Shown: positions 155 through 13,769 of the stretch, piece after piece | Position numbering within the stretch: position 1 is the stretch's first letter | Layout of the letters: each line of letters starts with the position of its first letter | From: a bacterium | Lineage (GTDB): Bacteria; Armatimonadota; Zipacnadia; Zipacnadales; UBA11051 | Assembly: GCA_021372615.1 (NCBI GenBank) | Contig: JAJFUB010000017.1 | Location: 117 to 64,116, forward strand | Length of the DNA stretch: 64,000 bases | Direction of reading: 5' to 3' | Notes under the pieces: generated by a model | What the model was told of the DNA's origin: nothing | Database searches by the model: none | What the model saw: the letters and a program-made list of their open reading frames with translations, nothing else | Program-made: the position numbers and the translations under genes

Positions 155-2086
155 CTACGGCTGCGGGAGGAACGCCTCGAGGGTCTTGGCCAGGTCCAGG
201 GCCGGCTCCCACTTGAAGAACTCGCTCTCCCACAGGAACTTCGGGTCGAGCGTTACCCCGTCAATCTGCTGCTCCAGGCCCTCGTTGGCCAGCAGGTCCT
301 CCACCAGCTTCAGGCTCCGGCCCTCCAGCGTGTATTCCACCGTCTGCTCGGCCATCACCCGGAAGGCACGGTTGCCCCGGGCGCGCGGCTCGGGGATGAG
401 CACATTGGGGTCGCGCGGCTTCTCCGGCTCGGTGAGGCGCTCCTTGCCGCTCTTGATGACCTGCTTGAGGCGTCCGGCCCCCAGGTGCTTGGTGAAGTCG
501 GCCAGCGTGGGATAGGCCTGGCGACTGACGACCTCGATCACGACCCCGGCGCGCAGGTTGTGCATCGGCTTGGGTAGCACGTACTGCTGGGGGCGGGCGT
601 AGATGGTCAGCAACAGGCTGGCCGACTCCTCCGGGCCGCTCCACTCCATCACGGCCGGCTTGGCGGCGGCGCCCTGGTTGCTGCCCGACGGGCCCGTGCG
701 GGTCAGCGTCAGGCCCACATAGCACTCGGCGGTCTCCACGGCCACGCTCTCCAACTCACCTACGGCGGTGGGCTGCCCGTTCCACGGCACGCCATAGCAG
801 TAGACGCCCTTCACGCCTTCCCGGGCTCCCAGCACGCCTCGCAGCGAGGCCTGTACGCGCTTGGGGATGGCGATGTCGTCGAAGTTGAAGCTGCACACGG
901 CCAGGTTGTCCGCCTGCACCGACTGGATGGTGCAGGGCGCGGGATCGCAGTAGAAGTACATGGTCGGGCGGCTGGAGCGGGCAAAGGTGCAGAAGATGGG
1001 TATGGTGGCCGGGCCGACCTCGCCCGACATCGTGCCGAGGGAGTAGTGCGGGGCGATGTAGGTATCCGTGCCGCGCACCGCGGCGAGGGGCGAGCGCGTG
1101 CGGCGCAGGCCCGTGGTGGCCGTCAGCCCGACAATGCTCTCCGGCGCCCGCCACTGCGGCAGCACTGCCGCCGCCAGGTACGGCTCGATCTGCGCGGGCA
1201 GCGGCAGGCCGAAGTCCGTCGCCAGCACATATGACGGGAAGCCGGCGGCGTTGACATAGTCCGACGCGAAGCCCTGGGTGAGCGCGCCGCCCACGTAGGC
1301 AGCGGCCGGATGCACCCGGCCCGCCAAGTCCACCGCCGCCAGCGTCAGCGCCTGGTCCATCGCCGCCCGGCGCTCCTCGGGCAGGCTCTCGCGGATCCAC
1401 TTGAGCGACACATAGCGCACCGTATCGAACGTGGCGCTGTGGCCGGCGGGCAGGCCCGTGCGGGTGGTCAGGCGCAGCCAGTCGTTCACCTCACCGACAG
1501 CGCCCCCGGCGTCGGCGCCCAGTGCGGCGGCAATCGTCGCCCGGGCGGCCACGCGCAACAGGAAGCGAGCATCGTCCTGGGGCTTGACCGCGACACGGGC
1601 CAGGGCCTTGTCGGCCAGGAGCAGGCTTTGGCGCAAGCGGGCTGTGAGATCAGCGCCCAGGGTGTCGGCGTGGTGGCGCAGTGCGTAGGCCAGCAGCGGC
1701 GCGGCGTAGAGCGTCGCCTCGGGGGTGGGGACGGCTTCCAGGTGCGGCGTGAGCGGCGTCCCGTCGGCGGCGGCAGTCACCATCTGGGCCTGCCACGGGA
1801 AGTGCCCCAGCTCGGCCCCCGACGCGGCCTGCGTGTCCAGGATCTTCCCGAGGATGAGGCGCGCCTGATCGAGGTTCTGCCCGGTGGCCAGACAGGCCGC
1901 CACGGTACCGGCGCTGGCTTCCGGGATGTCCGGGAGGCCGGTGCCGCCCTTGACGAGGCCGGTGGCAGCGTCGAAATGGGCCTGGCCATAGGCCACGATC
2001 GCCTGCAGGGCCGGGGCGTCGGCCTCGCGGGCGGCGACCGCCGGCAGGCAAAGCAGCAGGGGTACAAGCAGACGGAGAACGCGCAT
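155..2086 (-). CDS. Secreted hypothetical protein (643 aa) with a Sec signal peptide MRVLRLLVPLLLCLPAVAA. The N-terminal half is Ala-rich and helical; no domain recognised by eye.
   Basis: Long ORF 155..2149 on the minus strand. I chose the internal ATG at 2084-2086 because it directly precedes a canonical signal peptide. High GC3 codon usage consistent with neighbours. Confidence 0.6.
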   Translation of the reverse strand: MRVLRLLVPLLLCLPAVAAREADAPALQAIVAYGQAHFDAATGLVKGGTGLPDIPEASAGTVAACLATGQNLDQARLILGKILDTQAASGAELGHFPWQAQMVTAAADGTPLTPHLEAVPTPEATLYAAPLLAYALRHHADTLGADLTARLRQSLLLADKALARVAVKPQDDARFLLRVAARATIAAALGADAGGAVGEVNDWLRLTTRTGLPAGHSATFDTVRYVSLKWIRESLPEERRAAMDQALTLAAVDLAGRVHPAAAYVGGALTQGFASDYVNAAGFPSYVLATDFGLPLPAQIEPYLAAAVLPQWRAPESIVGLTATTGLRRTRSPLAAVRGTDTYIAPHYSLGTMSGEVGPATIPIFCTFARSSRPTMYFYCDPAPCTIQSVQADNLAVCSFNFDDIAIPKRVQASLRGVLGAREGVKGVYCYGVPWNGQPTAVGELESVAVETAECYVGLTLTRTGPSGSNQGAAAKPAVMEWSGPEESASLLLTIYARPQQYVLPKPMHNLRAGVVIEVVSRQAYPTLADFTKHLGAGRLKQVIKSGKERLTEPEKPRDPNVLIPEPRARGNRAFRVMAEQTVEYTLEGRSLKLVEDLLANEGLEQQIDGVTLDPKFLWESEFFKWEPALDLAKTLEAFLPQP

Positions 2087-2197
2087 CAGTTCACCTGTGT
2101 GGTGTGGGTAAGGGGCCGTGGCAATAGCTTCGACAAGTGAGTCCGCCAATGGTTCGCCGCTGGAGCGCTCAACACCTGTGTTGAGCCGCCGTGTTCC

Positions 2198-2226
2198 TTG
2201 AAGTCATGGGGTGAATCTGGTATAAT
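2198..2226 (+). promoter_or_regulatory. Sigma70-type promoter TTGAAG-17 nt-TATAAT (perfect -10), driving the + strand toward the STAND gene. A ~365-nt leader lies before the GTG start at 2597.
   Basis: Read directly: ttgaag at 2198-2203, 17-nt spacer, tataat at 2221-2226. Confidence 0.45.
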
Positions 2227-2596: not shown

Positions 2597-5374
2597 GTGC
2601 CTACTGCCTTCATCAGTTCGGCCAGTCGAGACCTGGGCGCCGATCGCCGGGCGGCCGCCGCGGCTGCCCGGGCGGCGGGCCTGGAGCCGTTCCTGTATGA
2701 GGACGAGATGGGTGGCCGCACCGCGAGCCCCGAGGTGGCCTGTCTGGACGAAGTGCGCAAGACCGACCTGGTTATCCTCCTGCTGGGGCAATGGTACGGC
2801 TCACGGACGGCGGACGGCAAGTCACCCACCCACCTGGAGTATGAGACGGCCCTGGATGAGGGCAAGCCGGTGTTGGTCTACATCAGGCGCGTCGAGCGCG
2901 AGGCCGACCAGCAGACCTTCGTGGCTGAGGTGCAGGACTGGGCCGCGGGCGAGTGCTGCCAGGAGTACGACACCCCCGACGACCTCGGGCCGCTGGTGCA
3001 GGCTGACGTCCGCCGCTTCCTTGACGAGGCCGTGGACGACCGCGCCTTCGAACGGGTCTTCCCCCGCTACATCCCCCGCTATCTGGGCAGCACCGTCAAG
3101 CAGCATGAGACCGCCCAGGAGGAGAACATCCCCTATCTGCCGCTGAGCGCCTCGGTGGCGCCGCTAGCGGCCGGGAGGGGTGTCCCCGAGACGGCAGCCT
3201 CAGTGGACGTGCAGGAGTTGATCGGCCAGACCCGTGCCTCCGGCGGGGTACTGCTGTTGCGGGGTGACGCCGGCAGCGGCAAGACCTACTCGCTGCGCAT
3301 GGCTGTCTACGAGGCCGCGCGCGAGGCGCTGGCCCTGCCCCCCGAGCGCCGGCGCAACCCCATGCTCCCGGTGCCGGTGCTGGTGAGCCTGGCCAACTAC
3401 CAGCGGGTGCCGGACGTGCAGCCGCATGAGGAGATCCTGTCGCTGGTGGCGCGAGCCCTGCGCCAGCACGGCTTCCCGCCGGTGCTCACGCTGGACCACG
3501 CCCGGCGCTTCCTGGCCACCCAGCGCTTCTGCTTCTGCTTCGATGGCCTGAACGAGATCGCGGAGGGCGACCTGCGCTCCGCCGTCACTGCCCTGCGGGA
3601 CTTCGTGGCACGTCACCCGAACGAAGGCATGGTGTTCACCGCCCGGTCACACTTCGTGGAGCGGCGCCGCGACCTGTGGGAGCGGACTCTCGGCGCGCAG
3701 TGCGCGACGCTGGACGACCTGGCTCTGCACCAGTTGCGGGACTACCTGGCTTCCGGCTTCCTGGACGAGGAGGCCGTCCAGCAAATCGGTGACAAGCTCA
3801 GCGACCCCGACACCTTCACCCTGGCGCAGAAGCCACTGTTCCTGTTCGTCCTCATCAAGACCATCACGCGCCTGGGCGAGGCCCGCGTCACCAAGGGGAG
3901 CCTGCTCGGGCAGTTCGTGGACATGGCCCTAGCGATGGACCTGCGGGAGAAGGCCTCCTACGTCAACCAGTTGTCCACCGATCTGAAACTGCAGGTGATC
4001 TCAACGCTGGGCTATCAGGCGCACGAGGCCGGCACGCACACTTTCGGCCTGCCGGTGCTGCGGTCCATTCTGCAGGTGGCCGTGCCGACGACCGACCCGG
4101 ACAGCGACGCCCGGGTCATGGCCGAGGAGTTGGTGGAGAACGGTATCCTGGCCCAGGTCGGGGGCTCCCTGCGGTTCTGGCACCCGGCGCTGCAGGAGTA
4201 CTGCGCGGCCCTGGAGATCCGCCGGCTGGCCATCGAGCCCTTGCTGGCGGCCGGGCCCCGGGGCCCCCACGGCCTCCGCCACCGCCTGACCCAGCAGATC
4301 ATGCACTGGTGCCAGGGGCGGGGCTGGGAGGAGCCGATGTCCCTCGCCTTCGGCTTCATCGCGGACGAGGCCCTGGCCAACGACCTGCTGGAGCGCATCC
4401 GGGAGACGAACACGGTGCTGGCAGGCAAGTGCATCGGCAACAGCAGCGTCGTCCGCGAGCAGGTGGTCCAGAACTTCACGGAGGAGTTGCAGCGGGAGTT
4501 CGCCCTGGCGCGGATTGACTGGATCCTGCTGGCGTACTATTGCCTGGCCGTCGGTGGCGGGGTGGTGCTGGCGGTGTTCCCGTCGAAGCAGACAGAGGTG
4601 GTTAGCGCCGTCCTGGGCTGGCTCGTGACGCATGTCGGCTCGCTGGCCTTCATCCCGAGCCGGCTGCAGTTCGTGAGTGTCTTCGTGATGGCGGCCGTCT
4701 GCACCGAGGTGCTGCGCCTGGCGGTCAACCGGCACATGCTCTCGGCGGTGGTCCTGCCGTCCCTGGTGGCGCTGGTCGAGGCTCGGCAGCCTTTGGCCAA
4801 CGGGGCCCTGCGGCGGATGCGGCAGTTGGCCGCCACGAGCCCGTGGCCCGCCAACGAGCGGGCCACCGCCGCGCTGAACCTGTTCTGCTACCGGTCGCAC
4901 CAGGGCGAGGCGGAGACGCTGGCGGCGCTGGACCGCGACGCTGAGCGCATCCTGGTGCTCGCCGCCCTGAAGGACACGCCCTACCTGTCGGTCATCAGCG
5001 CCGTCTGCAGTCGGCTGGCCGACCTGACGGACAGGGAGTGCCGCGTAGCCGTGGGCAGCCTGCTGGGGCTCAAGCCCCTGCCCTCGGCGGAGTTCCTCCG
5101 GGAGTCCCTGCCGTCGGTCATGGAGCAGACGGCCCGGTTCGGCTATGCCACGCGCAAGCGCGCCGCGGCGCTGGCGGCGGCGGTCGGCCTGCCCTACGAG
5201 CCGCCCCGGCGCTCCGTGCATGACCTCGGGATGGCTCTGCACAATACGCCCCCGATCATGACGCTCGCCCTATTCGTCGTGGCGCTGTGGTTGGTCGGGG
5301 CAGGTCTGGCTGCCCTGCGAGAGGCACTTGACGGTGTGCTCGTACCCTTCTTGCACCACGTGCTTCGAGGCTGA
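2597..5374 (+). CDS. STAND NTPase (925 aa). N-terminal DUF4062-type (TIR/flavodoxin-like) module beginning FISSASRDL. NACHT-type P-loop core with Walker A GDAGSGKT, Walker B FCFCFDGLNE, sensor FTARS, and winged-helix FWHPALQEYCAAL. C-terminal HEAT-like region with 3-4 predicted TM helices.
   Basis: Motifs read in the translation. GTG start at 2597. Hydrophobic stretches ILLAYYCLAVGGGVVLAVF, LAFIPSRLQFVSVFVMAAV, IMTLALFVVALWLVGAGLAAL. Confidence 0.75.
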   Translation: MPTAFISSASRDLGADRRAAAAAARAAGLEPFLYEDEMGGRTASPEVACLDEVRKTDLVILLLGQWYGSRTADGKSPTHLEYETALDEGKPVLVYIRRVEREADQQTFVAEVQDWAAGECCQEYDTPDDLGPLVQADVRRFLDEAVDDRAFERVFPRYIPRYLGSTVKQHETAQEENIPYLPLSASVAPLAAGRGVPETAASVDVQELIGQTRASGGVLLLRGDAGSGKTYSLRMAVYEAAREALALPPERRRNPMLPVPVLVSLANYQRVPDVQPHEEILSLVARALRQHGFPPVLTLDHARRFLATQRFCFCFDGLNEIAEGDLRSAVTALRDFVARHPNEGMVFTARSHFVERRRDLWERTLGAQCATLDDLALHQLRDYLASGFLDEEAVQQIGDKLSDPDTFTLAQKPLFLFVLIKTITRLGEARVTKGSLLGQFVDMALAMDLREKASYVNQLSTDLKLQVISTLGYQAHEAGTHTFGLPVLRSILQVAVPTTDPDSDARVMAEELVENGILAQVGGSLRFWHPALQEYCAALEIRRLAIEPLLAAGPRGPHGLRHRLTQQIMHWCQGRGWEEPMSLAFGFIADEALANDLLERIRETNTVLAGKCIGNSSVVREQVVQNFTEELQREFALARIDWILLAYYCLAVGGGVVLAVFPSKQTEVVSAVLGWLVTHVGSLAFIPSRLQFVSVFVMAAVCTEVLRLAVNRHMLSAVVLPSLVALVEARQPLANGALRRMRQLAATSPWPANERATAALNLFCYRSHQGEAETLAALDRDAERILVLAALKDTPYLSVISAVCSRLADLTDRECRVAVGSLLGLKPLPSAEFLRESLPSVMEQTARFGYATRKRAAALAAAVGLPYEPPRRSVHDLGMALHNTPPIMTLALFVVALWLVGAGLAALREALDGVLVPFLHHVLRG

Positions 5375-5412
5375 GCGCGGCGCCGCCGCGCCGGTCGCTG
5401 GAGGTACTGCCC

Positions 5413-6477
5413 ATGCAAGCCAGGAGAGTGTCGGCGCGGGGTTTCATCATCCGGGCCCTGGTTGCCATCGCTGTCGTCGTGCTGGTGGTCAAGTACGTCA
5501 CTTTCTACCAGGCGGAGATGGCGTCGCAGCCCCACATCATCAACTCGCTGATCGCCGATCTGCGGGACCCGGACGTCCACGTGCGCGCCGCCGCCGCCCA
5601 GGCACTGGGCAAGACGGGCAACAAGCAGGTCGCCAACGCACTCCTGGAGGCTCTCCAGAACGACCGGGAGCTGCTGGACGTGGTCATGGAGGCCCTGCAG
5701 AACCTGGAGATCAGCTTCGACTTCCGGACGGCAACGGCGCAGGCCCCGCGTCCGGGGTGGGTCGAGGCCGCGCGGCGCGCCCTGCGGCAGTACGCCGGGA
5801 TGTGGAACCAGCGCCTGACGGCCCTCGCTCGTGCCATATCGTTCGTGATCGTCTACCTGCCTCCGCTGCTGTTGTTCAACTACGTGGACCGGCGGTGGGG
5901 CCTGATGGAGTGGGTATTGCGGTGGTTGAACCAGGAGCGGTACCGGCAGATCATCAGGCATGTTGTCCATGGGGGCCTCTTCGTGGGCTGTTTCCTCGTC
6001 AGCCAGGTCTTCTACGCGCGCTTGATGGTTGAGCCGGTGGAGATGCCGCAACCCACGGACGTGACGATGCAGTTGGTCAAGATCGAGATGGCCGGGCAGA
6101 AGCGGGCTGTGGAAGCGGTGCCGATGCTTGTGGGCGTGCTCGAGAACCTCGACGCCGTGCCCGAGTTGCGCTGGCGGGCGGCCTACTCGCTCGGCCGGAT
6201 CGCCAACCGGCAGGGCCTCCCGGCCCTGCTGCGGGCCTTGCGTGACGGCGACCCCAAGGTGCGGCAGTATGCGGCCTGGGCGGTGGGCAACACCTGCGCC
6301 GTCGAGGCCCTGCGCCAGTCCGAGGCCGAGCCCCTGCTGCTGCGCTTCTGTACCTACTGCGGCGCGAAGGTCAGGCCGGACGACCAGCGCTGCGGCGAGT
6401 GCGGGCAGAAGATCAGACGCACCTTCGGCCTTGAGGAACGCAAAGACGAGAAGGGGCAGAAGGGCGTCGGCCAGTAG
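5413..6477 (+). CDS. HEAT-repeat (PBS-lyase type) membrane protein with a C-terminal Cys4 zinc ribbon (CTYCGAKVRPDDQRCGECGQ), 354 aa. Likely partner of the upstream STAND NTPase.
   Basis: GGAGG RBS at 5398-5402 and ATG at 5413. HEAT signatures DPDVHVRAAAAQALGKTG and DGDPKVRQYAAWAVGNT. Three hydrophobic helices. 38-bp gap from the upstream gene. Confidence 0.7.
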   Translation: MQARRVSARGFIIRALVAIAVVVLVVKYVTFYQAEMASQPHIINSLIADLRDPDVHVRAAAAQALGKTGNKQVANALLEALQNDRELLDVVMEALQNLEISFDFRTATAQAPRPGWVEAARRALRQYAGMWNQRLTALARAISFVIVYLPPLLLFNYVDRRWGLMEWVLRWLNQERYRQIIRHVVHGGLFVGCFLVSQVFYARLMVEPVEMPQPTDVTMQLVKIEMAGQKRAVEAVPMLVGVLENLDAVPELRWRAAYSLGRIANRQGLPALLRALRDGDPKVRQYAAWAVGNTCAVEALRQSEAEPLLLRFCTYCGAKVRPDDQRCGECGQKIRRTFGLEERKDEKGQKGVGQ

Positions 6478-8439: not shown

Positions 8440-8876
8440 GCAGTCCCCTGGACCGTGACAGCCTGGAGGTGACGATCCCCTGCGAGCCGCGGTTCCTGTC
8501 AGTGGTGCGGCTGACGGTAGCCGGAGCCGCCGCGCGCGCCGGGCTGGGCGTCGCCGAGATTGATGATGTGAAGGTGGCCGTCTCCGAGGCCTGCACCAAT
8601 GCCATCGAGCATGCCTTCCCCCCGGCCGAGGGCAAGGCGTGCCCCGCCATCCGTATCCGCATGACCGCTCGGGACGGCGAGCTGCGGCTCGAAGTGGAAG
8701 ACGAGGGCAGCGGCTTCGACCCCAAGCATCTGCCGCGGGTGGACCTGGAGCAGCGGGTGTCCGAGGAGGGCGGGCTGGGCGTCTACCTGATGCGGCAGCT
8801 CATGGATGAGGTGAAGATCGAGAGCGCTCCCGGCAGCGGTACGAAGATCACGATGGTCAAGCGCTCGGCGAGGTGA
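8436..8876 (+). CDS. Anti-sigma factor serine kinase (HATPase_c, RsbW/SpoIIAB-like).
   Basis: N-box EACTNAIEHAF and G-boxes DEGSGFD and GGLGVYLMRQLMDEV. Translationally coupled to the STAS gene. Confidence 0.85.
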   Translation: MSSPLDRDSLEVTIPCEPRFLSVVRLTVAGAAARAGLGVAEIDDVKVAVSEACTNAIEHAFPPAEGKACPAIRIRMTARDGELRLEVEDEGSGFDPKHLPRVDLEQRVSEEGGLGVYLMRQLMDEVKIESAPGSGTKITMVKRSAR

Positions 8877-8880
8877 CGGT

Positions 8881-9636
8881 GTGGAGTCTCGCTGGGATGA
8901 GATGACCACGGACGAGATGTTCGCGGAGTTGCGACACACCTCCGACCCCGAGCTGCGTGCCGCCCTCATCGAGCGGCATGAAGGCTTGGTGCGGCATGTT
9001 GCCCGCCGGTACATGAACTCCGGCGAGTCGTACGAGGATATCGTGAGCGTCGGCCACCTGGGCCTGGTCAACGCGGTGGACCGCTTCGACCCGACGCGTG
9101 GCACCAAGTTCGCCACCTTCGCCGTCCCCACCATCAAGGGCGAGATTCGGCGCTACTTCCGCGACCGCACCTGGGGTCTGCGAGTGCCGCGCCGGGTGCA
9201 GGAGCTGTCGCTCAAAGCGCGCCAGGCCCTCGAGGAGATGACGCAGCGGCACGGGCGCTCACCCACGTATGCGGAGCTGGCCGAGCAACTGCACGTGGGG
9301 GAAGAGGATGTCATCGAGGCGATGGAGGTCGGGCGCCAGCACGACCTGCTGAGCATTGACGCTGCTCAGGACGATGAGGACGGCTTCGGACAGAGTGCCG
9401 CCGACCGGGCGGGTGACGTGGATGTGGACCTGGAGAGCCTGGGACAGCGCTCGGAGATCTCCTGGGCGCTGCAACAGCTCCCGGCGCGGCAGCGCCTCAT
9501 CGTCATCATGCGCTTCTACATGGACATGTCCCAGCAGGATGTGGGGGAGAGGCTGGGCATCTCCCAGATGCACGTCTCGCGCCTGCAGCAGAAGGCGCTG
9601 GTGCGCCTGCGGCAAGTGCTGCAGCGACAAGGCTGA
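8881..9636 (+). CDS. Group-3 alternative sigma factor (SigB/SigF family).
   Basis: Region 2 (YEDIVSVGHLGLVNAVDRFDP, FATFAVPTIKGEIRRY) and region 4 HTH (QQDVGERLGISQMHVSRLQ). GTG start 4 bp after the kinase gene. Confidence 0.85.
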   Translation: MESRWDEMTTDEMFAELRHTSDPELRAALIERHEGLVRHVARRYMNSGESYEDIVSVGHLGLVNAVDRFDPTRGTKFATFAVPTIKGEIRRYFRDRTWGLRVPRRVQELSLKARQALEEMTQRHGRSPTYAELAEQLHVGEEDVIEAMEVGRQHDLLSIDAAQDDEDGFGQSAADRAGDVDVDLESLGQRSEISWALQQLPARQRLIVIMRFYMDMSQQDVGERLGISQMHVSRLQQKALVRLRQVLQRQG

Positions 9637-9655
9637 CGGCACAAGGATGAGTGAC

Positions 9656-9707
9656 GAAGGCGGAGAGGTGGCGGTGCGGCGACATGCCGCACCGCCCTGC
9701 CGCCTTC
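9656..9707 (+). terminator. Long GC-rich hairpin after the sigma factor gene (outer stem gaaggcgg/ccgccttc, inner 11-bp stem ggcggtgcggc/gccgcaccgcc).
   Basis: Complementarity read directly; no U-tract. Confidence 0.4.
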
Positions 9708-9723
9708 CGCCTAGCGCCCTGGG

Positions 9724-11001
9724 GTGAGCGCCATGACTGGTCGCGTCTGGTGGCAAGCCGTTTCCGCCGTGCTCGTGGGCGTGCTGCTGGCGTTGGTGGC
9801 GCGCTACGTGTTCGTGCACAGCCTCGCCATCCTGGTGCTCTTCGCCCTGGGATGGCTCGTGGCGTGGGTGATGGACCCGCTGCTGGACGCCATGCAGCGC
9901 CGTGGCATGAAGCGGATGGCGGCCGTGTGGGTGGTCACGGCGGGGTTCGTCGTGGTGCTGGCGGTGGGGGGCGTGCTGATCGTCCCGCGATTGGTCGCGC
10001 AGGTGCAGGACGCTGCCAGCCACTGGCAGGACTACTCGGCCACGGCGCAGACGACCTACGAGTACTGGCACCAGCGCCTGACGGAGTATGTCAACGCCCA
10101 GTATCCGGGCGTGGAGATCATGCCGTTCCTAGATGACAAGGTGGCGGAGGCCAGCGCCTGGCTGGCGCGCAACATCCCCACCTTCTTGCAGTGGCTCAGC
10201 CAGCAACTGATCGCCTCGGTCGGCCTGGTCGGCATGGGCTTCCTGCTGCTGGTCATCAGCTTCCATTTCATGAACCTGATTGACCCGCTCCGCGAGAGCA
10301 TCCGCAAGATGCTGCCGGCGAGCGCGGACGGGGAAGTGGACCGCCTCGGCACGCAGATCAACGCCATGCTGGGGCAGTACCTGCGCGGGATCGTGCTGGT
10401 CAGCATCCTGACGGGCATCACGGTCACGCTGGTCCTGAGCACCGTCAGCATCTTCTTCGGCACCAAGTATGCCCTGATCCTGGGCCTGGTGTCGGGCATC
10501 ACGTACATGATCCCGTACGTGGGGCCGACCGTCAGTTGCGTCAGCGCCGGGTTCTTCGGCTACGTCACCGCCGCCCAGTCGCCCTGGTGGGCCTGCGGCG
10601 TCTCCATCGCGGGGATGCTGGCGATCAACCAGGTCTTCGACACCTTCGTGACGCCGCGCATCGTCGGGCAGCGGGTCGGGTTGCATCCGCTCGTGATGCT
10701 GTTCTCGGTCTTCATCGGGGTCGCGCTGCTGGGGATACCCGGGATGATCATCGCCACGCCGGTGGCGGCCAGCATGAAGATCGTGCTGGCGCGGTGGCTG
10801 CCCATCAAACAGGTGAATTTCACCGCGCCCTGCGGCAAGCGGCGGCTGGACATTGACGTGGCCGCGAGCCTGAACCTGCTGGCGATGAATGTGGCTCGCA
10901 TTCGGCGGGATGTGGAGACGGTGCTGCGGCACGAGGCGCATGAGAGCCCGGGAGGCGCGCACAAGCCGCCTGCCGAGCCGCCCGACGAAGGGGAAGTGTA
11001 G
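9724..11001 (+). CDS. AI-2E family (PerM/UPF0118) transporter.
   Basis: Seven to eight hydrophobic segments and the family core MIPYVGPTVSCVSAGFFGYV...VFDTFVTPRIVGQRVGLHPL. Confidence 0.8.
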   Translation: MSAMTGRVWWQAVSAVLVGVLLALVARYVFVHSLAILVLFALGWLVAWVMDPLLDAMQRRGMKRMAAVWVVTAGFVVVLAVGGVLIVPRLVAQVQDAASHWQDYSATAQTTYEYWHQRLTEYVNAQYPGVEIMPFLDDKVAEASAWLARNIPTFLQWLSQQLIASVGLVGMGFLLLVISFHFMNLIDPLRESIRKMLPASADGEVDRLGTQINAMLGQYLRGIVLVSILTGITVTLVLSTVSIFFGTKYALILGLVSGITYMIPYVGPTVSCVSAGFFGYVTAAQSPWWACGVSIAGMLAINQVFDTFVTPRIVGQRVGLHPLVMLFSVFIGVALLGIPGMIIATPVAASMKIVLARWLPIKQVNFTAPCGKRRLDIDVAASLNLLAMNVARIRRDVETVLRHEAHESPGGAHKPPAEPPDEGEV

Positions 11002-11007
11002 GGGTGC

Positions 11008-11070
11008 CACGGCCAGCCCTGCTGGCCGTGCGGGGGGCACCAACGTCCACGGCCAGCAGGGCTGGCCGTG
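11008..11070. repeat. Two copies of a 23-nt hairpin element in opposite orientation (cacggccagccctgctggccgtg and its exact reverse complement) after the transporter gene. REP-like element or terminator.
   Basis: Copy 2 at 11048-11070 is the exact reverse complement of copy 1 at 11008-11030. Each copy is a 9-bp stem with a 5-nt loop. Confidence 0.5.
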
Positions 11071-11144
11071 CCACCCGTCACTGAACAACACCGGGCGTCG
11101 CCTGGCGCGCCCCTACTGATCCAAGGAGTAGCAGGAACGACACA

Positions 11145-13769
11145 ATGCCTACCGTGCAGGAGATTCGACAGCTTTTCCTGAGCTTCTTTGAGGAGCGTGG
11201 CCATCTCGTCCGCCCCAGCGCGCCGCTGGTGCTGCGCGACGACCCGACGAGCCTGTTCACCAGCGCCGGCATGCAGCCGTACATGGCGGCCTACCGGGGT
11301 GAGGAGGCGCCGCCGGCCCCGCGCGTGGCCAGCATCCAAAAGTGCAACCGCACCGTGGACATCGAGGGTGTCGGCATCCACAACCGCTACTGCACCTTCT
11401 TCGAGATGCTGGGCAACTTCTCGTTCGGCGACTACTTCAAGCAAGAAGCCGTGGACTTCGCCTGGGAGTTCTTCAACGACGTGCTCGAGCTCCCGCGCGA
11501 ACGCCTGTGGTTCACCGTCTACACCGATGACGACGAGACCGAGGAGATCTGGCACAAGCGCATCGGCATCCCCCGCGAGCGCATCCTGCGCTTCGGGCGC
11601 AGCGACAACTTCTGGCCCAAGGCGCGCTGGGAGGGGCCCTGCGGCCCTTGCAGCGAGATCCACATTGACCTGGGCGAGGAGTACTCCTGCGGCAGTCCCA
11701 CGTGCCGGGTGAACTGCGACTGCGACCGCTACCTGGAGCTGTGGAACCTCGTATTCCAGATGTACACCGAGGCTGAGGACGGGACGCTCACGCCGCTGCC
11801 CAAGCCCGGCGTAGACACCGGCATGGGCCTGGAGCGGCTGGCGCTGGTCCTGCAGGACAAGCCATACGTCGCCGAGACCGACGAACTGTGGCAGATCTGC
11901 AGCGCCATCGTCGAGGCCATCAACTCGCAGCGCACCACGCCGCTGGCGTATGGGGACGCCGCCGAGACCGACCTGGCCCTGCGCATCATGACCGACCATC
12001 TCCGCGCCTCGACGTTCATCATGAACGACGGGGTCGTGCCCAGCGCCGACGGGGCGGGCTACGTGTTGCGGCGCTTCATCCGCCGCGCCTACCGCTTCGG
12101 GCGGCAGGCGGGCGCCACCCGGCCCTTCTTGCACGAGGCGCTGCCGGCCGTGGCCGCCGCCATGGGCGAGGCCTACCCCGAGTTGCGGGACAAGGTGGAG
12201 TTCTCCGCCAAGCTCATGCACCGGGAAGAGGAGCGGTTTGCCGGGACGCTCGAGTCGGGCATCAGCCTGCTCGAGGAGATCGTGGACGGACTGCAGGGCA
12301 CGGTCATCGGCGGTCAGGAAGCCTTCCGGCTCTACGACACGTACGGCTTCCCGCTGGAGCTGACCGTCGAGCTGGCCGCCGAGCGCGACCTGACGGTGGA
12401 CGAGGCGGCCTTCGCCGAGGCCATGGAGGCCCAGCGGGTGCGGTCGCGCGGGGAGACCGTGGGGCTGGCCGGATCGCGCGATGTGGAGCTGTCGGCGGGG
12501 CTCCCGGCCACGGAGTTCGTGGGCTACGAGACGACAGCGGCGGAGGCGCAGACGCTGGCCTTTGTCCGCGACGACAAGGTCGTGGACGGCCTCGAGGAGG
12601 GTGACGAGGGCGGGCTGGTGCTCGACCAGACGCCCTTCTACGCCGAGCGAGGCGGCCAGGTCGGCGACCGCGGCCGGATCGTCTTCCCCGACGGCGTCTT
12701 CGAGGTGGCCAACACGCTGCCCCTGGGTGACACCATCCTGCACGTCGGCCGCATGGCCAGCGGCGTGACCGAGCCGGGCCGGGTCCTCGCCGAAGTGGAC
12801 CCGTCGCGGCGGCGGGCCATCTGCGCGGCCCACACCGGCACGCACCTGCTGCACGAGGCCTTGCGCCGGGCGCTGGGGACGCACGTGGACCAGTCCGGCT
12901 CGCTCGTGGCGCCCGACAGGCTGCGCTTCGACTTCACCCATCACGAGAGCGTGGCGCGGGACATCCTGGACCGCGTAGAGGACCAGGTGAACGAGTGGGT
13001 GGTGGGCGATCTGCCGGTGGCGATCGCCACCATCGAGTTCCAGGCTGCCCGCGACGCCGGGGCCCGGGCGCTGTTCACCGAGAAGTACGGCGATGTCGTC
13101 CGCACCGTGAAGGTCGGCGACGTGAGCATGGAGCTATGCGGCGGCACGCACTGCGCCAGCACCGGGCAGGTCGGCTCGCTGCGTATCCTGTCCGAGAGCA
13201 GCATCGCCGCCGGGGTGCGGCGCATTGAGGCCGTGACCGGGCTGGAGGCCGTGCGGCACGGACGGCACGTCGAGGCCGAGCTGGTCAGCATCGCCAAGGC
13301 TCTCGGCTGCACTGTCGAGGAAGCCCCGGGTCGTGTGGCGGGGCTGCAGGCGCGGCTGGCGGAGTTGCAGCATGAGCTGAAGCAGGCCCGACAGGCGCGG
13401 TCGGCCATGAACCTCGACAGCCTGCAGACGGTTGAGATTGGCGGCCTGAAGGTCGTCGCGGCCGAGATCCCCGGCGTGGATGCCGAGATGCTGAGCAGCC
13501 TGGTGGACCAGGTGGCCGACAAGAGCGGCGAGGGGGTGACGATCCTGGCCACGGTTGAGGACGGCAAGGTGCTGTTCATGGCCAAGGCCAGTGACGGCGC
13601 CGTCCGGGCCGGGGTGCATGCCGGGAACCTGGTGAAGGAACTCGCGACGCGGTGTGGTGGTGGCGGGGGCGGGCGGCCGCAGTTCGCCCGAGCCGGCGGC
13701 AAGGACCCCGAGAAGCTCGGCGAGGCGCTGGCGGCGGTGGCGGGGTTGGTGGAGGGGCAGTTGAAGTAA
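11145..13769 (+). CDS. alaS: Alanine--tRNA ligase.
   Basis: 874 aa. Class II aaRS motifs, the HxxxH editing/Zn motif (HTGTHLLHEAL) and the C-terminal C-Ala region. Gene order alaS-ruvX-mltG. Confidence 0.95.
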   Translation: MPTVQEIRQLFLSFFEERGHLVRPSAPLVLRDDPTSLFTSAGMQPYMAAYRGEEAPPAPRVASIQKCNRTVDIEGVGIHNRYCTFFEMLGNFSFGDYFKQEAVDFAWEFFNDVLELPRERLWFTVYTDDDETEEIWHKRIGIPRERILRFGRSDNFWPKARWEGPCGPCSEIHIDLGEEYSCGSPTCRVNCDCDRYLELWNLVFQMYTEAEDGTLTPLPKPGVDTGMGLERLALVLQDKPYVAETDELWQICSAIVEAINSQRTTPLAYGDAAETDLALRIMTDHLRASTFIMNDGVVPSADGAGYVLRRFIRRAYRFGRQAGATRPFLHEALPAVAAAMGEAYPELRDKVEFSAKLMHREEERFAGTLESGISLLEEIVDGLQGTVIGGQEAFRLYDTYGFPLELTVELAAERDLTVDEAAFAEAMEAQRVRSRGETVGLAGSRDVELSAGLPATEFVGYETTAAEAQTLAFVRDDKVVDGLEEGDEGGLVLDQTPFYAERGGQVGDRGRIVFPDGVFEVANTLPLGDTILHVGRMASGVTEPGRVLAEVDPSRRRAICAAHTGTHLLHEALRRALGTHVDQSGSLVAPDRLRFDFTHHESVARDILDRVEDQVNEWVVGDLPVAIATIEFQAARDAGARALFTEKYGDVVRTVKVGDVSMELCGGTHCASTGQVGSLRILSESSIAAGVRRIEAVTGLEAVRHGRHVEAELVSIAKALGCTVEEAPGRVAGLQARLAELQHELKQARQARSAMNLDSLQTVEIGGLKVVAAEIPGVDAEMLSSLVDQVADKSGEGVTILATVEDGKVLFMAKASDGAVRAGVHAGNLVKELATRCGGGGGGRPQFARAGGKDPEKLGEALAAVAGLVEGQLK

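Follow-up and report, generated by a model that had tools for sequence, protein, structure and literature searches.

How is a bacterial NLR-like protein that appears to sit in the membrane to be understood, and does the smaller membrane protein encoded directly behind it belong to the same device? This question is raised by two adjacent genes on the forward strand of contig JAJFUB010000017.1 (GenBank assembly GCA_021372615.1, positions 117 to 64,116), from a bacterium of the Armatimonadota (Zipacnadia, Zipacnadales, UBA11051). The whole stretch of 64,000 nucleotides is called the window here, and its own numbering is used. The first gene, open reading frame (ORF) A (2597-5374, forward strand), begins with GTG and encodes 925 amino acids (MCE5237240.1, 'DUF4062 domain-containing protein [bacterium]'), arranged as a DUF4062/NIR domain, a NACHT module, a cluster of transmembrane (TM) helices, a HEAT-like region, and a C-terminal TM helix. 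The second, ORF B (5413-6477, forward strand), begins with ATG and encodes 354 amino acids (MCE5237241.1, 'HEAT repeat domain-containing protein').

A first-pass annotation, made by a model from the DNA letters, had given both genes these same coordinates and this strand and had called them a candidate defence module. Given the effector, the switch, the exchange of effectors among relatives and the linked partner, defence is the best-supported reading, and on balance the pair is probably a membrane-embedded abortive-infection NLR in which ORF B serves as a co-sensor or regulator. The domain identities, the catalytic and ATPase motifs, the membrane segments, the gene pair and the effector swapping were all observed in this analysis. 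Loci or contigs gathered as relatives of ORF A or ORF B are labelled L, and the corresponding proteins P.

The N-terminal DUF4062/NIR domain

The N-terminal part of ORF A (2597-3031, forward strand; residues 1-145) is a DUF4062/NIR domain of the TIR-like NADase type. Pfam PF13271 (DUF4062) matches residues 5-85 with 63.8 bits against a cutoff of 24.7 (E=1.8e-17), spanning profile positions 3-82 of 82, and the motif FISSASRDL lies at residues 5-13. Single-sequence phmmer searches of the Protein Data Bank (PDB) with ORF A or its N-terminus returned no match, and profiles were required: a profile built from 14 N-terminal domains, ORF A included, matches the DUF4062 structure of KpSwz (10wc_A, E=1.7e-20) and that of human TEP1 (11gz_A, E=3.5e-8). 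The putative catalytic glutamate of ORF A is E81 (codon 2837-2839, forward strand), within the motif T-H-L-E-Y. This residue aligns with the alanine of the KpSwz E97A construct, which marks the catalytic glutamate, and it is invariant in the 14 sequences and 95% conserved among 143 aligned homologues. In the AlphaFold model, residues 3-144 form five alternating beta-alpha units, with a local predicted local distance difference test (pLDDT) score of only 45-86.

The function of this domain has been described in three 2026 preprints, in which DUF4062, renamed NIR, acts in abortive-infection defence against phages as a TIR-like NADase, depleting NAD+. The equivalent catalytic glutamates are E97 in KpSwz, E108 in PsAvs2, and E98 in Vulcan. 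NIR has been shown to be the NADase effector in Avs2, Vulcan, Vesta, Swarozyc, and Evangelion, and has been reported in 'other NLR-like proteins'; Swarozyc is triggered by the phage portal, while Evangelion adds one more DUF4062 defence family of the single-gene kind. The work covering Avs2, Vulcan (NIR + HEAT), and Vesta also finds known defence genes in the neighbourhood of about 20% of NIR genes, where 3.9% would be expected (bioRxiv 10.64898/2026.09.04.749371, Le Mouellic et al.). Together with the Pfam hit, these preprints uphold the annotation's 'DUF4062, TIR-like' assignment. ORF A would accordingly be expected in the same chemical class: its catalytic site is intact, and the putative NADase activity is carried over from its homologues.

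The NACHT switch

The NACHT module (3212-4231, forward strand; residues 206-545) comprises a nucleotide-binding domain, a helical domain, and a winged helix. Its Walker A motif is GDAGSGKT (3263-3286, forward strand; residues 223-230). The Walker B stretch FCFCFDGLNE (residues 311-320) carries D316 together with E320, so that the usual DGxDE reads DGLNE; sensor-1 is FTARS (residues 347-351) with R350 as its arginine, and the winged-helix stretch FWHPALQEYCAAL (residues 527-539) contains the motif FWHPALQEY. All four elements are invariant across the family alignment. The Pfam NACHT profile matches 9 of the 9 aligned family members at E<=0.01 (best 1.3e-8), and two relatives with the same module exceed the Pfam cutoff (30.8 bits in L010 and 27.0 bits in L011).

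According to a Foldseek search of the PDB with the AlphaFold model of ORF A (pLDDT 77.6), animal NLR NACHT structures account for 23 of the 25 best matches and for all of the top 21. NLRP9 ranks first (7.9e-11), accompanied by NOD2, NLRP3, NLRC4, NAIP, and NLRP7, with values ranging from 7.9e-11 to 4.4e-6; the plant NLR RPP1 occupies rank 22, and ORC/Cdc6-type ATPases rank lower. The complete NACHT core that the annotation had read from these motifs is thus borne out by the motifs themselves, by the NLR-like fold, and by the family-wide Pfam match. Bacterial NACHT proteins are known to defend against phages in a manner that needs the Walker A lysine (Kibby et al., bioRxiv 10.1101/2022.07.19.500537; Cell 2023).

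The C-terminal membrane/HEAT module

Behind the winged helix, the forward-strand gene continues with a helical region (4232-4510; residues 546-638) that contains the conserved W577/E579 and NTVLAGKCIGN and is modelled at pLDDT 86-95. A cluster of two to three TM helices follows (4511-4732; residues 639-712; hydropathy peaks of 2.28, 1.90, and 2.04), then a HEAT-like repeat domain (4733-5242; residues 713-882), and finally a C-terminal TM helix (about residues 886-907; hydropathy 2.40) with an 18-residue tail and the stop codon (5243-5374). TM segments were called from Kyte-Doolittle hydropathy in 19-residue segments, which gives four strongly hydrophobic segments in ORF A, at about residues 640-663, 668-686, 690-711, and 883-911. 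The hydrophobic segments of the cluster, where model confidence is low, stand at the same place in all family members, and the C-terminal hydrophobic helix is found in 8 of 9 aligned members. Membrane anchoring, as the annotation had proposed, agrees with these segments and their conserved positions in homologues.

The HEAT-like region was undetected by Pfam in the single ORF A sequence. At the level of the family profile, positions 753-879 match alphaRep proteins, which derive from PBS-HEAT repeats, with E=1.2e-15, and HEAT_2 is found in two family members and weakly in L011. The alphaRep match and the four hydropathy segments substantiate the C-terminal HEAT-like region with TM helices that had been claimed. 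Compared with close relatives, the C-terminal HEAT region shows about three times the non-synonymous change of the NACHT module, a faster rate that fits the expectation for a sensor.

The partner gene

The two genes are separated by a 38-bp spacer (5375-5412, forward strand), in which a GGAGG ribosome-binding site stands 8 nt before the ATG of ORF B and no terminator-like site was found. ORF B is laid out as TM1 (residues 5-35), HEAT block 1 (about 41-97), TM2 and TM3 (135-206), HEAT block 2 (about 240-300), and a CxxC-x10-CxxC ribbon (6346-6411, forward strand; residues 312-333) that precedes a Lys/Glu-rich tail. Its hydrophobic segments lie at about residues 5-35, 135-156, and 184-206. HEAT_2 scores 72.7 bits (cutoff 27.7) in two blocks and HEAT_PBS 34.6 bits (cutoff 20.9). 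The ribbon, CTYCG-x10-CGECG, is kept in P0004, P0005, P0240, and L075, and Zn_Ribbon_1 reaches 24.4 bits, just below its cutoff of 25. Except for that narrowly missed ribbon profile, the description of ORF B as a polytopic protein with PBS-lyase HEAT repeats and a Cys4 ribbon, 38 bp downstream, proved accurate.

The key evidence that the two genes form a unit comes from a distant locus. An exhaustive HMMER search of 1.84 billion representatives returned only two proteins at E<=1e-30, namely a 94% copy and P0087, which is 33% identical to ORF A over its full length. At the P0087 locus, L004, the upstream gene differs, and 34 bp downstream lies a gene whose product, visible over 172 residues, shares 39% identity with ORF B along with its TM-HEAT-TM layout. 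Because adjacency is kept at 33% and 39% identity within different flanks, the pair is taken as a unit, and the check for conservation of the gene pair in relatives that the annotation had suggested comes out in favour of ORF B as a true partner.

Closer copies tell the same story at shorter range. Copies at 85-95% protein identity occur on five short metagenomic contigs (L001, L002, L069, L075, and the Logan contig for P0004), and in these near-identical copies the gene order and spacer are unchanged wherever both genes are visible; the spacing is identical in L001, L002, and L075. Codon differences between ORF A and L075 number 109 synonymous and 70 non-synonymous, and both ORF A and ORF B are under purifying selection relative to close relatives.

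An alternative is that ORF A is a self-sufficient single-gene defence NLR and that ORF B is a mere co-transcribed neighbour with a separate or no essential function. Most characterised Avs and bNACHT systems are indeed single-gene, the strongly linked second gene of Vesta (the vstB phosphatase) is dispensable for defence, ORF B offers only generic HEAT repeats and a Zn-ribbon with no enzymatic domain, and hhalign finds no specific relation between ORF B and the C-terminal module of ORF A. Against these points stand the adjacency that persists, over about 35 bp of spacer and between different flanks, at 33%/39% identity, the tightly linked membrane-protein gene of every sister lineage, sometimes overlapping the stop codon, and the database searches, in which B-type proteins were found only beside A-type genes and the remaining relatives of ORF B were generic soluble HEAT proteins. 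A dispensable ORF B is therefore judged unlikely. Derivation of ORF B as a duplicated C-terminus of ORF A was considered separately and rejected, hhalign returning only a chance HEAT-like stretch at a probability of 0.4%.

The start of ORF A was also examined in the close copies. Its GTG start and first 37 codons are kept in L075 and L001, and for this reason the 925-residue reading is regarded as right. The public calls for L001 (524-3190) and L075 (1685-4351) begin at an internal ATG and give 888 amino acids, omitting the 37 conserved codons and with them the first beta-strand (FISS motif) of DUF4062; given the conservation of the GTG and these codons, such calls are N-terminally truncated. 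In L069 (2535-5063; MTKZ01052493.1, 92% identical), ORF A is broken into shorter ORFs (206, 193, 180 amino acids, and others), which reflects either frameshifting assembly errors or a pseudogene.

Effector swapping and partners in sister lineages

Beyond the window clade, both the NACHT module and the entire C-terminal membrane/HEAT module are present in distant full-length relatives with 20-25% identity. These relatives reach E=1e-78 to 1e-143 against a local hidden Markov model (HMM) built on the C-terminal module, and this module defines a rare family. A scan of GTDB genomes by tblastn gave hits at the NACHT level only, while L010, L011, and L013 were recovered by the local HMM of the C-terminal module. 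A metagenome scan with the family alignment gave one close copy (L069, 92%) and otherwise generic NACHT hits, and a scan of viral contigs gave zero relatives, so a phage or prophage origin is unsupported.

On this shared chassis, the N-terminal domain is exchanged. DUF4062 is carried by the window ORF A, P0087, P0094, P0098, and L010, TIR_2 by L011 and L013, SIR2_2 by P0228, and Trypsin_2 by P0089 and P0200, the last of which is preceded by a Trypco1 gene. The N-terminal domains of the family match the PADLOC effector profiles ThsA, Dsr1, LmuA, Aga-TIR, and ThsB. Swapping of N-terminal domains on a constant module is typical of immune STAND proteins.

The partner changes as well. A membrane-protein gene comes next on the same strand in each of the 10 non-redundant lineages, with a gap of -10 to +137 bp, and the encoded proteins are of HEAT/Zn-ribbon (window clade), Peptidase_A24-like, or Peptidase_S26-like kind. 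The A24-like (prepilin-peptidase-like) partners are polytopic proteins of 271-285 amino acids, encoded at L005 2959-3546, L007 3031-3888, L008 4749-5576, L009 3607-4464, L010 ~8850-9713, and L011/L013 8375-9190. When five of them (L005, L007, L008, L009, and L011) were aligned to E. coli GspO, the Asp of GYGD was found replaced by C, A, T, or N in all five, and none has Asp at the aligned first catalytic position. We take the two Asp residues of this GspO alignment to be the catalytic Asp of type IV prepilin peptidases. By eye, the GYGD Asp is likewise lost in the L010 partner; L013 is a close relative of L011.

The S26-like (signal-peptidase-I-like) partners are encoded at L006 3237-5699 and L076 11273-11893 (also L077 and L078). 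One is fused to a BNR/sortilin beta-propeller, and the other is followed by a PDZ protein. Inspected by eye, L076 is without the SMxPT serine and both have a residue other than Lys before the R of the KR box, so that they seem, at least in part, to be without the Ser/Lys dyad. Judged by these residues, the A24-like and S26-like partners look non-catalytic, and the A24-like proteins look like pseudo-peptidases.

A membrane-resident 'guard' could be imagined on this basis, in which the TM/HEAT module of a bacterial NLR monitors a dedicated non-catalytic membrane partner that acts as phage bait or decoy; this is a tentative proposal that we consider fairly doubtful. If it were true, the decoy, a HEAT/Zn-ribbon protein in the window clade and a catalytically dead A24-like or S26-like protein in sister clades, would attract phage proteins directed at the envelope or at secretion machinery, and tampering with it would lead to NACHT oligomerisation and then to NAD+ depletion or proteolysis.

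The variety of partners and effectors also bears on where the toxic activity resides. It could be argued that the true effector is ORF B, or the membrane module of ORF A, and acts by damaging the membrane, with DUF4062 being regulatory or nucleotide-sensing instead of an NADase; for some Avs/STAND proteins, TM domains are among the listed effectors, and membrane segments are a constant feature of the ORF A family. However, the catalytic Glu of DUF4062 and its surrounding motif are intact, STAND effectors sit N-terminally and precisely that part is swapped for other known effectors, and the partner is wholly different between clades (HEAT, A24-like, S26-like), unlike a conserved pore-former. 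A membrane-damaging effector thus appears highly improbable.

Four further proteins, P0122, P0150, P0163, and P0224, constitute a separate DUF4062-STAND group of about 800-850 amino acids. In these proteins many glycine-rich TM helices form a long block ahead of the winged-helix motif ('GGGY.F.H'), and this insertion implies that membrane insertion into DUF4062-STAND proteins arose more than once.

Genomic surroundings and the weighing of defence

Upstream of the pair lies a 6S RNA gene (SsrS, RF00013; 2242-2451, forward strand), which matches the full-length Rfam model with 69.2 bits against a gathering threshold of 46.4. It is preceded by a sigma-70-like, near-consensus extended -10 promoter, TTGAAG-17-TG-TATAAT (2198-2226, forward strand). 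This promoter was considered as ORF A's own and rejected, as it belongs to the 6S RNA gene. The 6S RNA gene ends 145 nt ahead of ORF A, which has the same orientation, and ORFs A and B could be transcribed by read-through from the 6S promoter. L001, L075, and L069 share this arrangement, and L004 lacks it. Further upstream, a divergent ORF of 664 amino acids (155-2149, reverse strand) matches nothing in Pfam or PADLOC; the protein collection does not contain its exact sequence and may call its start differently. Downstream of the pair follow mgsA/rarA, a STAS-RsbW-sigma factor cluster, an AI-2E permease, and alaS.

These neighbours suggest another explanation, in which A and B have no anti-phage role and serve chromosomal signalling or a stress response, coupling a membrane or envelope cue to NAD+ turnover or else to controlled dormancy or cell death in the population. 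It could tie to the stationary-phase neighbours (6S RNA and the RsbW/STAS/sigma factor genes) and draws on the stable housekeeping context in close relatives and on surroundings of the window pair without defence genes or mobile-element marks; STAND NTPases also serve as bacterial regulators, and the eukaryotic DUF4062-NACHT proteins TEP1 and NWD1 have non-immune settings. The link to stationary-phase genes is not conserved, since L004 lacks the 6S RNA and has another gene upstream. Conflict systems typically exchange NADase and protease death effectors, and all tested bacterial DUF4062 proteins are defensive. We regard a signalling or stress role as improbable.

Several observations count against a membrane-embedded defence NLR with a dedicated partner and should be set out together. 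The housekeeping context is kept in close relatives, though not in L004; no tRNA, integrase, mobile-element, or defence gene was found beside the window pair, whose composition is unremarkable (the G+C content of the ORF A/B region, 0.67-0.69, equals that of the rest of the window); and L011 and L013 adjoin ribosomal-protein genes. PADLOC (2023) offers no model that A or B matches significantly. The PADLOC check that the annotation had suggested gave nothing significant for ORF A, the sole hit being mad8 at E=0.01. The window clade is very rare, consisting of one 33% relative and near-identical copies, so that two independent lineages carry the evidence for conservation of this particular A-B pair. 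Positive-inside charge counts fail to fix the topology of A or B, so that the HEAT surfaces may lie on either side of the membrane, and the AlphaFold model of ORF B, built from four near-identical sequences, has a pLDDT of 49.8 and is unusable. Finally, Pfam NACHT scores ORF A alone at 19.7 bits, below the curated cutoff of 26.7; the NACHT assignment holds despite this score because of the match in all nine aligned family members and the Foldseek hits to NLRs.

Other relatives are found in different company. The neighbours of L010 (Burkholderiales; 522-2672 and 10224-12155) encode a TOTE primase-helicase (AEP-TOTE, 157.5 bits) and a weak DUF4231, and this setting is a conflict-system neighbourhood. 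At L003 (3601-8307), P0003 (1568 amino acids) is a soluble DUF4062-NACHT-HEAT-TPR fusion with SIR2_2, DnaB_C-like, and AbiEii genes as neighbours. P0003 is 25% identical to ORF A, and only DUF4062, NACHT, and generic HEAT repeats are common to both; the HMM of the C-terminal membrane module gives no match to it. P0003 provides a 'Rosetta-stone'-type link of DUF4062-NACHT with HEAT repeats in a defence-island-like setting.

Relation to known systems

The nearest described class is found among bNACHT proteins, for which Kibby et al. distinguish five classes of C-terminal sensor, among them 'TM regions', likely reading intra-membrane or periplasmic signals, and catalogue DrHyd, TIR, SIR2, trypsin, and other N-terminal effectors (bioRxiv 10.1101/2022.07.19.500537). 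The ORF A family resembles this class in its central NLR-like NACHT, its effector repertoire, and its several C-terminal TM helices. Unlike that class, which is catalogued only, it possesses a conserved TM+HEAT+TM module and a downstream partner, and whereas the tested bNACHT proteins are soluble single-gene systems, ORF A is membrane-embedded and belongs to two genes. Membrane tethering, which the annotation called atypical of such proteins, is already described, as the same study lists a TM-region sensor class.

PsAvs2 and the 'other NLR-like' NIR proteins share with ORF A an N-terminal NIR with its catalytic Glu, a STAND NTPase, and a helical-repeat sensor, and the expected output would be the same as for PsAvs2, namely NAD+ depletion and abortive infection. 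PsAvs2 is a soluble STAND protein of the Avs clade whose TPR-like sensor binds the phage terminase, in contrast to the NACHT-like NTPase, membrane-embedded sensor, and linked second gene of ORF A. Membership of Avs was rejected, with no significant PADLOC Avs hit.

Vulcan likewise combines a DUF4062/NIR effector with HEAT repeats as a presumed protein-binding sensor, but it is one soluble protein with NIR placed directly on HEAT and no NTPase switch. Membership of Vulcan was rejected, as a 340-residue NACHT and TM helices intervene in ORF A and extra HEAT repeats lie in a second gene. Swarozyc (KpSwz) and Evangelion have a homologous DUF4062 with the same catalytic Glu position; at about 330-370 amino acids, they combine it with an AUX domain, lack a STAND NTPase and TM segments, and are activated by portal or replication proteins. 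ORF A, with 925 amino acids and a NACHT, was not assigned to them, only its residues 4-145 matching the DUF4062 proteins of about 365 amino acids. In eukaryotes, TEP1, NWD1/2, and NPHP3 show the same N-terminal order of DUF4062 then NACHT, and L010 matches the NPHP3_N profile; these eukaryotic proteins are soluble, sense through WD40 or TPR domains, and lack a membrane partner.

The claim that the two-gene architecture is undescribed goes too far and stands only in part. The architecture of the single protein is of a known kind, since bNACHT proteins with TM-type sensors and the 2026 fusions of DUF4062 to Avs/NLR proteins have been published. For the C-terminal membrane/HEAT module with an obligatory partner gene, no description was found in the literature searched; partner genes go unmentioned in the Nature 2026 STAND survey and in papers of the Aravind group. 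No literature linking NACHT with prepilin-peptidase-like partners was found either, a provisional result, with about 1.4 million PMC manuscripts lying beyond the search. A conserved membrane/HEAT sensor module that is always accompanied by a non-catalytic membrane partner of varying type therefore appears to be new.

Proposed mechanism

For the membrane-embedded abortive-infection NLR that we favour, the following course may be envisaged. The NADase chemistry, activation driven by oligomerisation, and abortive infection are taken from the literature on homologous domains, and we infer the interaction of A with B, the signal at the membrane, and the anti-phage role in the host. At rest, the TM/HEAT module of A would lie in the cytoplasmic membrane together with B, with the NACHT ADP-bound, monomeric, and auto-inhibited. 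An infection event at or in the membrane would then alter the A-B assembly, either through a phage protein binding HEAT surfaces of A and/or B or through a disturbance of B. The NACHT would swap its nucleotide and oligomerise, and the clustered DUF4062/NIR domains would switch on their NADase through E81, breaking NAD+ down into ADP-ribose and nicotinamide. The infected cell would arrest or die before the phage cycle is completed.

Significance

All characterised bacterial NLR-like sensors, such as Avs and bNACHT, are soluble and bind phage proteins in the cytoplasm, whereas the membrane is the site of phage DNA entry, holins, superinfection exclusion, and secretion. The locus extends the recent work on DUF4062/NIR to membrane-bound NLRs and offers a compact, testable two-gene example with a putative NADase output, an intact switch, and a membrane input module with its partner. 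Should the partner prove to be a guarded decoy, the family would represent a bacterial counterpart, inside the membrane, of the guard/decoy NLR pairs of plants. The pairing of the same module with apparently inactive membrane peptidases in sister clades suggests a general principle of partner-dependent sensing.

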